64,000 nucleotides of DNA from the sequence record OL960577.1; one strand, given 5' to 3'. Under the pieces are notes generated by a model. The model searched no databases. It was given only the letters and a program-made list of their open reading frames with translations, and was not told the origin of the DNA. Positions 10,455 to 11,366 of the stretch are shown in pieces; within the stretch, counting starts at the first letter, position 1; the number at the start of each line of letters is the position of its first letter. Position numbers and translations under genes: made by a program. The DNA is from Escherichia phage vB_EcoM_SA35RD.

Positions 10455-10750
10455 GCGGCAACCTTGTCGGGGTTTCCACCTACTAAGGCAAGTGTTTGTA
10501 CGAAACGCCGGGATTCGAACCCGGTTATCAAGTAGTTGACGCTACTCAATATTTTTAAAAGGCCATATCTCGACCATATCCGAACGTTCCGTCAAAAACG
10601 CTACTCGGCTTACGGCAAAGATATTTCCTCGAATCGATAATTCGGTGCGCCGTTTCTGCTGTGATGTAAGGGGATATTAACAAATCGTAAAGATTTATTA
10701 AGACCAGTCCTTACTCAGGGAACATCAGTCCGACGACTTACCGGTAGCGA
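10455..10750 (-). ncRNA. candidate small stable RNA region (T4 rnaC/rnaD-like position), tRNA-like T-arm at 10508..10524
   Basis: About 300 bp without a credible ORF between the 10760 gene and the terminator at 10419..10447; contains CCGGG-TTCGAAT-CCCGG plus a 7-bp acceptor-like strand, but I could not complete a cloverleaf. Confidence 0.3.
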
Positions 10751-10759
10751 CCCGGCTTC

Positions 10760-11104
10760 TTATTTTGGCATATCATCAATTTGCTCTCGACGCCGACGCC
10801 ATAGATTAATCGCTTCATTAACACATTCGGCGTTTGGTATATGACGGCAATAATATAATGATTCGCGTTTCTGGAACCGATGTTGCAATGGAATTTCGTT
10901 TAAAAGGTCTTTACGGTCAAAGTATTCAAAACTAGTTAACCCAGAACGATTTTTAATGAACTTCCAATGTCCAAATTCATTTTGAACATAGATGTAATCG
11001 GCATGCTGATACAGCAAATTAATCAATCGATGAGAAATAACTGTATCATATTCGTTAAAATAAAACGTTAAATCATGAACTACCAGATAAATATTGCCTT
11101 TCAT
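10760..11104 (-). CDS. hypothetical protein between the tRNAs and the structured-RNA region
   Basis: Start at ATG 11104 (MKGNIYLVVHDL) with SD GAGGAAAA; the longer 11152 start would overlap tRNA-Arg. Confidence 0.45.
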   Translation of the reverse strand: MKGNIYLVVHDLTFYFNEYDTVISHRLINLLYQHADYIYVQNEFGHWKFIKNRSGLTSFEYFDRKDLLNEIPLQHRFQKRESLYYCRHIPNAECVNEAINLWRRRREQIDDMPK

Positions 11105-11122
11105 ATTTTCCTCACTTGAAGT

Positions 11123-11199
11123 TGGTCGAGACAGAAGGATTCTAACCTTCAACCTACGGATTAGAAGTCCGTTGCTCTATACAATTGAGCTATGCCTCG
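11123..11199 (-). tRNA. tRNA-Arg (anticodon UCU), CCA encoded
   Basis: Manual cloverleaf: acceptor CGAGGCA/TGTCTCG, D-stem GCTC/GAGC, anticodon stem ACGGA/TCCGT with loop CTTCTAA, T-stem GAAGG/CCTTC, discriminator A, CCA. Confidence 0.8.
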
Positions 11200-11205
11200 A
11201 ATATA

Positions 11206-11279
11206 TGACCCAGACCAGATTCGAACTGGTAACCTTTCCCTTATGAGGGGACTGCTGCTAACCATTGAGCTACAGGGCC
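11206..11279 (-). tRNA. tRNA with anticodon CAU (Ile2 or Met type), no encoded CCA
   Basis: Manual fold: acceptor GGCCCTG/CTGGGTC (one U-U mismatch), anticodon loop CTCATAA, T-arm ACCAG-TTCGAAT-CTGGT; D-stem only 3 bp, so slightly irregular. Confidence 0.6.
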
Positions 11280-11341
11280 TAAATAACTTTCTATTATGAA
11301 AGGCACTTTAGAGCACCTTTGGTAATAGAGGGTATGAATTA

Positions 11342-11366
11342 ATAATATCACATTATTCTTAAAGCA
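11342..11366 (-). promoter_or_regulatory. candidate MotA-dependent middle promoter upstream of the tRNA genes
   Basis: Minus-strand MotA box TGCTTTA (11360..11366), 12 bp, -10 TATTAT. Confidence 0.35.

Follow-up and report, generated by a model that had tools for sequence, protein, structure and literature searches.

The tRNA region of Escherichia phage vB_EcoM_SA35RD, very probably an RB69/T2-type version of the T-even phage tRNA operon

Layout and identity of the operon

Escherichia phage vB_EcoM_SA35RD (sequence record OL960577.1) carries, on the minus strand between positions 10420 and 11368 of the 64,000-nucleotide (nt) stretch analyzed here (referred to as the window), what is very probably the RB69/T2-type version of the tRNA operon of T-even phages. 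Every feature of the region lies on the minus strand, along which the order is a MotA-type promoter and leader, tRNA-Ile(CAU), tRNA-Arg(UCU), a gene for a protein of 114 amino acids (aa), the stable RNA genes rnaD and rnaC, a trailer hairpin, and a terminator (Table 1). The analysis established which genes are present, that they are orthologous to those of T4 and RB69, a structure of rnaC that is backed by covariation, and the codon usage. The RB69/T2-type tRNA operon has already been published, and the locus is of low interest as a discovery; its main value is the correction of annotations.

An earlier note, made from the letters of the sequence alone, had described the region as a minimal tRNA set (Arg-UCU and CAU only) at a place where T4 has a larger cluster and segB, and this description was borne out. 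ARAGORN found exactly two tRNA genes in the whole 64-kb window, and the Rfam family RF00005 recognized both over their full length (1-71), with 71.1 bits for tRNA-Arg and 54.0 bits for the CAU tRNA against a gathering score of 29; T4 has eight tRNAs and segB at the homologous place. At gathering level, Rfam reported nothing in the window beyond these two tRNAs, with the rnaC/rnaD region staying below the RF00005 threshold, and a lenient Rfam scan of positions 10300 to 11450 likewise found no further tRNAs, so the covariance models added no intact tRNA that the note had overlooked. For the segment 10455-10750, the note had pointed out a perfect T-arm and had offered two interpretations, stable RNAs like rnaC and rnaD or a decayed tRNA. 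The T-arm is real, and alignment with the T4 tRNA region showed unambiguously that the segment corresponds to T4 rnaD and rnaC base for base; the decayed tRNA had to be given up, for reasons that are weighed below.

A 1-kb query over the locus matched 776 phage records, 136 of which covered at least 80% of the query, and the records nearest to the window were those of Mosigvirus (RB69-like) phages, with 96 to 98% identity. In one further phage, ATK47, the gene order is as in the window, and rnaC is annotated downstream of the open reading frame (ORF). RB69 itself (NC_004928, 74420-74941, together with an unannotated 430 bp downstream) has tRNA(CAU), tRNA-Arg(UCU), and RB69ORF150c, followed by rnaD and rnaC, and its operon is flanked by ORF151c/tRNA.2 and ORF149c; the rnaC covariance model scored 168 bits on the RB69 locus (L003, 6150-6304). 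Nothing of substance distinguishes the two loci, except that in the reference record of RB69 the CAU tRNA appears under the label Met and annotation of rnaC and rnaD is missing.

T4 (NC_000866, 70908-72530) has homologous counterparts of the window promoter with its leader, of tRNA-Ile, of both stable RNA genes, and of the trailer hairpin and terminator. Its genes are arranged in the order tRNA-Gln, -Leu, -Gly, -Pro, -Ser, -Thr, and -Ile, segB, tRNA-Arg, rnaD, and rnaC; unlike the window, it thus has six more tRNAs before tRNA-Ile and segB after it, and its tRNA-Arg, which is unrelated to that of the window, abuts rnaD. Instead, a T2L-type tRNA-Arg and the 114-aa ORF are found in the window. 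Phage T2L (PMC2330249) also lacks segB; its tRNA-Arg belongs to the same lineage as that of the window, and after it come the trna.2 ORF and the genes for the species II and species I RNAs. BW-1 shows this T2L layout as well. T2L and BW-1 both have more tRNAs and a second ORF, trna.1, whereas the window has the CAU and Arg tRNAs only (annotated tRNAs of BW-1 are Thr, Met, Tyr, Asn, and Arg, and those of T2L include Ser and further shared ones). With promoter and leader at one end and trailer and terminator at the other homologous to T4, both ends of the operon are orthologous between T4 and the window phage, and the two phages differ in the middle only.

The T4 transcript starts at a middle promoter and ends at a terminator after species I (PMC2330249). 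By analogy with the T4 work, the operon of the window would give rise to one transcript of ∼0.9 kb, which host tRNA-processing enzymes would cut into two tRNAs, one mRNA, and two stable RNAs.

Table 1 Features of the tRNA operon in the window and misannotated counterparts of rnaC and rnaD in other loci
Feature	Position	Strand	Basis
Predicted MotA-dependent middle promoter	11342..11368	minus	Sequence reading; homology to T4
tRNA(CAU), orthologue of T4 tRNA-Ile	11206..11279	minus	ARAGORN, Rfam, T4 alignment
tRNA-Arg(UCU), CCA end encoded, reads AGA	11123..11199	minus	ARAGORN, Rfam
114-aa gene, RB69ORF150c, homologue of the T2L trna.2 ORF (phrog_3355)	10760..11104	minus	ORF list, profile
rnaD (species 2 RNA) orthologue	10644..10763	minus	T4 alignment; 5' end by homology
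rnaC (species 1 RNA) orthologue	10499..10637	minus	T4 alignment, RNAalifold, covariance model R1
T-arm of rnaC, CCGGG-UUCGAAU-CCCGG	10508..10524	minus	Sequence
Conserved hairpin CACUUGC-CUUA-GUAGGUG, 3' trailer of rnaC	10477..10494	minus	Fold
Intrinsic terminator, GCCCCUUCCGAAAGGUCGGGGC then UUUUU	10420..10446	minus	Terminator scan and fold
Misannotated rnaC/rnaD loci	L013 647-740; L008 603-710; L012 520-705; L007 1565-1654; L016 663-917; L035 502-654		

Comparative structure of rnaC

The rnaC orthologue was identical to T4 rnaC at 137 of 139 positions (98.6%) in a local alignment, compared to 78.1% identity between T4 and the window for the adjacent protein gene trna.2; the T4 coordinates used to compare rnaC and rnaD were taken from alignment A1. 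It lies downstream of rnaD and upstream of the trailer hairpin and terminator and thus at the 3' end of the operon, as in T4. The fold of the stretch had a z value of −3.81, and none of 200 shuffles folded equally well. RNAalifold, applied to a MAFFT alignment of 12 sequences (A5), gave a four-way junction. Its parts are an acceptor-like stem of 7 positions, a long arm, a hairpin of 10 bp whose CGUCAA loop is conserved, and the T-arm, which adjoins the 3' strand of the acceptor-like stem directly, as it does in a tRNA. In this alignment, 93.9% of the cells were paired, and 18 of the 48 pairs had changes on both sides, while none of 500 shuffles was as good and controls with a slid structure had only 38 to 46% of cells paired. 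The set was then enlarged by 17 IMG/VR loci, found with a degenerate pattern, and all hits were aligned to covariance model R1, which resulted in 26 distinct sequences (A11). Here, pairing was found in 94.9% of the cells and changes on both sides in half of the pairs (24/48), again with no equally good alignment among 500 shuffles and with 39 to 48% of cells paired in the slid controls. The T-arm helix was paired throughout the 26 sequences (100%), with both-side changes in two of its five pairs; the two middle positions of the acceptor-like stem were U-U in 24 of the 26, and standard pairs at these positions occurred in the Tegunavirus type only.

Model R1 scored 171.3 bits on the window rnaC, found one copy per locus, and gave weak matches to true tRNAs (E values of 0.004 to 0.07). 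Records of Karamvirus, Winklervirus, Tegunavirus, and Moonvirus contained rnaC-like sequences according to BLASTN, and where tRNAs are annotated in records of the first three genera, the rnaC copy is located between tRNA genes. This comparative evidence indicates that rnaC is a selected, tRNA-derived structured RNA and not a pseudogene.

Rfam scans at gathering level and with E values up to 10 returned no family for rnaC or rnaD; the only matches, both at chance level, were tRNA-Sec at 10500-10592 (16.8 bits, E = 3.2) and isrK on the opposite strand. An alternative cloverleaf for the 3' 94 nt of rnaC, in which ACGGAACG pairs with CGUUUCGU, was considered and rejected, since this pairing breaks in Tegunavirus and leaves an A-C pair in Karamvirus, unlike the 5'-terminal stem and the apical hairpin of rnaC, which covary. 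It is this same pairing that underlies the tRNA-Sec match and an annotation as "tRNA-Lys(ttt)" in the record of phage G2133.

The tRNA-like domain of transfer-messenger RNA (tmRNA) and the tRNA-like structures of plant viruses resemble rnaC in that they retain an acceptor stem stacked on a T-arm and have other structure in place of the D and anticodon arms. Unlike them, rnaC has no encoded CCA, no tag reading frame, and no Rfam match, and its acceptor-like stem contains tandem U-U mismatches; it is not a member of either family, and the comparison is limited to how these RNAs might work.

In Enterobacter phage fGh-Ecl04 (L011, 520-672), the distal half of the long arm is swapped for an unrelated sequence that nevertheless forms a hairpin at this place (minimum free energy of −45.2 kcal/mol, z = −3.15). 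In the long arm, shape rather than sequence seems to be kept.

Layout and distribution of rnaD

The rnaD orthologue is separated from rnaC by a 6-nt spacer, as in T4, and was identical to T4 rnaD at 106 of 119 positions (local alignment). An alignment of eight sequences showed invariant 5' and 3' blocks flanking a central hairpin that occurs in three unrelated versions; a CCGG/CCGG hairpin whose loop has 7 nt is part of the 5' block. The folds of rnaD from T4, P896, and Dhakavirus have in common this 5' hairpin and a closing helix in which GUCGUCG pairs with CGGCG(C)AC, and in a fourth variant, from Gaprivervirus UPEC01, both strands beside the closing helix have changed, so that, on a reading of the sequence, GCCUG would pair with CAGGC. 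In rnaD, a conserved core (5' hairpin and closing helix) is built around a swappable hairpin. The possibility that rnaD is a diverged copy of rnaC was dismissed; the rnaC covariance model matched rnaD in no locus.

In Dhakavirus and Gaprivervirus, rnaD is present without rnaC (L007, 1501-1740; L014; L015; and L016), and BLASTN matches in records of Karamvirus, Winklervirus, and Tegunavirus were confined to the rnaC part. rnaC and rnaD are separable modules. In Dhakavirus CLB_P2, the trailer that elsewhere is found after rnaC directly follows rnaD, and rnaC thus behaves as a module that is cleanly inserted or deleted.

The functions of rnaC and rnaD were given as unknown in a review from 2010 (PMC3014915). 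A T4 transcriptome study from 2022 confirmed both RNAs by Northern blotting and found that they accumulate late (PMC9697503). In an evolution study from 2025, in which the T4-like phage BW1 adapted to Escherichia coli ECOR34, one convergent single-nucleotide polymorphism (SNP) arose in rnaD (PMC12685909). By coordinate arithmetic, this SNP corresponds to position 775 of locus L017 (position 164264 of the BW-1 record) and would lie in the variable central hairpin, near nt 76 of rnaD. The same study places rnaC upstream of rnaD, which is the plus-strand order and opposite to the direction of transcription.

The two tRNAs and codon usage

The CAU tRNA is identical to T4 tRNA-Ile at 73 of 74 positions, the sole difference being one base of the T-loop. 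It contains three nonstandard pairs (U6-U67, C13-C22, and G27-A43), which do not point to decay because they are common to T4 tRNA-Ile. According to the sequence and the Rfam alignment, it also carries C4-G69, C5-G68, U12-A23, C29-G41, A37, A38, and A73. These are the determinants for TilS and IleRS as reported by Nureki (1994) and Ikeuchi (2005), and T4 tRNA-Ile itself was reportedly studied by Guthrie and McClain. By these sequence features, the CAU tRNA appears to be an intact lysidine-type tRNA-Ile for AUA and not a tRNA-Met, and the host TilS would presumably turn its C34 into lysidine. With E. coli tRNA-Ile2 (ileX/ileY), it shares the CAU anticodon, the GGCCC start of the acceptor, C4-G69, C5-G68, A37, A38, and A73; the two are not close in sequence, and the phage tRNA differs in its 3-bp D-stem and its U6-U67 mismatch. 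Nolan et al. (2006) assigned the CAU tRNAs of all tRNA-encoding T4-like phages, which have the same signature, to the lysidine tRNA-Ile type and listed RB69 with exactly two tRNAs (PMC1524935).

The tRNA-Arg of the window aligned poorly with T4 tRNA-Arg and well with the tRNA-Arg genes of BW-1, G2133, CLB_P2, and P896; judged by these alignments, it belongs to the T2L/BW-1 lineage and not to the T4 lineage. The T2L-type tRNA-Arg isoacceptor was described by Brok-Volchanskaya et al. (2008) (PMC2330249). The window tRNA-Arg and that of Gaprivervirus P896 (L014, 374-447) have U19 (D-loop ..UUGUAUA) and A56 (T-loop UUAGAAU), and the tRNA-Arg genes of BW-1, G2133, and CLB_P2 have G19 and C56, which looks like a compensated tertiary pair between the D-loop and the T-loop.

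Across 60 long ORFs of the window, AGA made up 17.4% of the Arg codons and AUA 17.3% of the Ile codons. E. coli, whose rarest tRNAs decode these two codons, uses them several-fold less. The two phage tRNAs would add decoding capacity for AUA and AGA. Because both codons are used at a high rate and are read by rare tRNAs in E. coli, the minimal set is a tRNA pair that props up the weakest points of host decoding, and it shows what a T-even phage retains once its cluster shrinks to a minimum, namely, readers of AUA and AGA.

The 114-aa protein and its overlap with rnaD

The 114-aa ORF has a GAGG Shine-Dalgarno sequence 7 nt upstream of its ATG, matches phrog_3355 over residues 1 to 113 (E = 6.8e-50), and occupies the same position after tRNA-Arg in RB69, ATK47, and BW-1. 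Its homologues (with 69 to 97% identity, plus more distant ones) all come from T4-like phages, and primer #24 for the T2L "trna.2 ORF" in the SegB paper (PMC2330249) encodes KGNVYLVVH, which is the N terminus of the 114-aa protein. The AlphaFold model reached a moderate predicted local distance difference test score (pLDDT, 72.6) and matched uncharacterized Straboviridae proteins only. No Pfam family was found for the protein, with a subthreshold hit to DUF2654 (E = 0.04) as the only trace, and searches for a fold match among solved structures in the PDB, for a PDB profile, and for a defense-system profile were likewise negative. We conclude that the ORF is real and conserved and that it is not a recognizable homing endonuclease.

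The ORF is present at the junction of tRNA-Arg and rnaD in RB69, T2L, and BW-1, and a shorter ORF occurs at the same site in Gaprivervirus; in T4 and Dhakavirus the ORF is absent, with the junction as the exact boundary, and tRNA-Arg abuts rnaD. In the window, rnaD and the ORF overlap, the shared stretch being the last sense codon and the TAA stop codon of the ORF: placed by homology to T4, the 5' end of rnaD (10763) falls inside the last Lys codon, one base before TAA (10760-10765). In T4, the CCA end of tRNA-Arg is found at this point. Since the 5' end of rnaD precedes the stop codon, excision of rnaD would be expected to yield a stop-less mRNA of the 114-aa ORF. An analogous effect has been proposed for segB and tRNA-Arg in the SegB paper (PMC2330249).

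Alternative explanations

In one alternative, the segment 10455-10750 would be a decaying tRNA gene or a functionless leftover of a larger T4-type cluster, a reading that draws on the perfect T-arm and acceptor-like 3' strand without a cloverleaf, on the weak tRNA-Sec-like match, and on GenBank records that name part of the segment tRNA-Lys or tRNA-OTHER. Against it stand the near identity of rnaC to its T4 counterpart (98.6%, versus 78% for the adjacent coding gene), the compensatory changes in half of its 48 pairs across several genera, the failure of the tRNA-like ACGGAACG/CGUUUCGU pairing in Tegunavirus and Karamvirus while the 5'-terminal stem covaries, and the detection of T4 rnaC and rnaD as stable RNAs on Northern blots (PMC9697503), and we regard decay as extremely improbable. 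A second alternative, which we consider very unlikely, too, takes the CAU tRNA for a tRNA-Met (elongator or initiator) or for a partly degenerate tRNA. The label tRNA-Met comes from ARAGORN and from most deposited annotations, including that of RB69, and the earlier note, which pointed to a 3-bp D-stem and two mismatches, had suggested that this tRNA may be partly degenerate. The nonstandard pairs are indeed there, three in number; the degeneracy is contradicted by the single T-loop base that separates the molecule from T4 tRNA-Ile. Its C4-G69 and C5-G68 pairs match those of E. coli ileX, as opposed to U4-A69 and A5-U68 in tRNA-Met, and the further reported determinants at positions U12-A23, C29-G41, A37, A38, and A73 are in place as well. 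Certain deposited records already label this tRNA as tRNA-Ile, and the assignment of phage CAU tRNAs to the lysidine tRNA-Ile type by Nolan et al. (PMC1524935) also speaks against tRNA-Met.

For the 114-aa ORF, the alternative is that it encodes a degenerate or novel free-standing homing endonuclease, that is, a selfish insert at the tRNA-Arg/rnaD junction comparable to segB. The presence or absence of the ORF is exact to this junction, the protein has conserved His, Asp, Asn, and Glu residues, and its model starts with a beta-beta-alpha element, all of which would suit such an enzyme. However, a homing endonuclease, whether GIY-YIG (like segB) or HNH in type, was looked for by profile and by fold, and no catalytic motif or domain was found, in agreement with the earlier note, which had seen no homing-endonuclease motif in the ORF; no match to Pfam, to a nuclease, or to a solved fold was obtained, and we hold the endonuclease reading to be highly improbable.

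Possible roles of rnaC and rnaD

Species I RNA is subject to cleavage by RNase III. rnaC keeps the acceptor/T-arm minihelix of a tRNA, with the other two arms replaced by a long RNase III-type hairpin and by the 10-bp hairpin with the CGUCAA loop, and the minihelix most likely serves as a handle for excision and stabilization. As a tentative best guess, rnaC may be a tRNA mimic that binds a tRNA-recognizing protein. It is rather doubtful, though conceivable, that rnaC, with its 98.6% identity between Tequatrovirus and Mosigvirus and its location in tRNA clusters, is a dedicated mimic that titrates or redirects such a protein and that rnaD is a second module with a host-specific, swappable hairpin; candidate targets of rnaC may in that case include a host anticodon nuclease, another tRNA-targeting defense, or a processing or modification enzyme. 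If a dedicated mimic were indeed at work, the rnaC model would allow the 50-year-old question of the species 1 and 2 RNAs to be tested with structure-guided mutants. What the structural comparison of rnaC and the division of rnaD into a core and a swappable hairpin provide is a set of concrete targets for mutagenesis, not a functional answer.

Several points weigh against the interpretation of the operon and its RNAs presented here. Transcription, processing, lysidine modification, and RNA stability were all transferred from T4 to the window phage, and the mature ends of rnaC and rnaD were set by homology to the T4 annotation only. The larger rnaC alignment (A11) was fitted to model R1, so that its pair counts lean toward the structure, even if the independent alignment A5 agrees. 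rnaC encodes no CCA (the T4-annotated end is ...GUA, after which the genome continues with CAAA), so that aminoacylation of rnaC is not obviously to be expected; this makes a strict tRNA-mimic view less convincing. With regard to decoding, the match between tRNA set and codon bias is weak in several T4-like phages (Nolan et al., PMC1524935).

Corrections to existing annotations

Two corrections follow for related phages: the CAU tRNA of RB69-like phages is a tRNA-Ile and not a tRNA-Met, and both stable RNA genes, rnaD and rnaC, exist in the RB69 reference and most related records, where their annotation is missing. In the G2133 record, the 3' two-thirds of rnaC is labeled "tRNA-Lys(ttt)," and several of the examined records have coding sequences for a "hypothetical protein" over rnaC or rnaD, some of them on the opposite strand (Table 1).

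Promoter, leader, trailer, terminator, and flanking genes

The predicted middle promoter consists of the MotA box TTTGCTTTA (11368-11360), followed by 12 bp and the −10 hexamer TATTAT (11347-11342). The leader downstream of it runs to 11280, and promoter and leader are homologous to the T4 stretch upstream of tRNA-Gln, with which the tRNA cluster of T4 begins. Within the leader (11280-11335, minus strand), AAAGGUGC-UCUAAA-GUGCCUUU forms a hairpin; the T4 counterpart differs in sequence yet pairs on a reading of the alignment. At the other end of the operon, T4, G2133, and BW-1 likewise have both trailer hairpin and terminator, and in Dhakavirus CLB_P2 the two are located directly after rnaD; the terminator is kept with compensatory change in T4, G2133, BW-1, and CLB_P2.

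The operon is flanked by two genes on the same strand, one like RB69ORF151c (11359-11874, phrog_2290) and one like RB69ORF149c (9910-10374, phrog_2280), and neither had a Pfam match. In T4, no gene separates trna.2 from the first tRNA.

A scan for sigma-70 promoters found fewer sites than in shuffles, and the core of T4 late promoters, TATAAATA, does not occur between 10000 and 12000. In the whole window, this late-promoter core is present in 19 copies, compared to 7.8 expected, the majority of which are plus-strand copies located between 37 and 59 kb.

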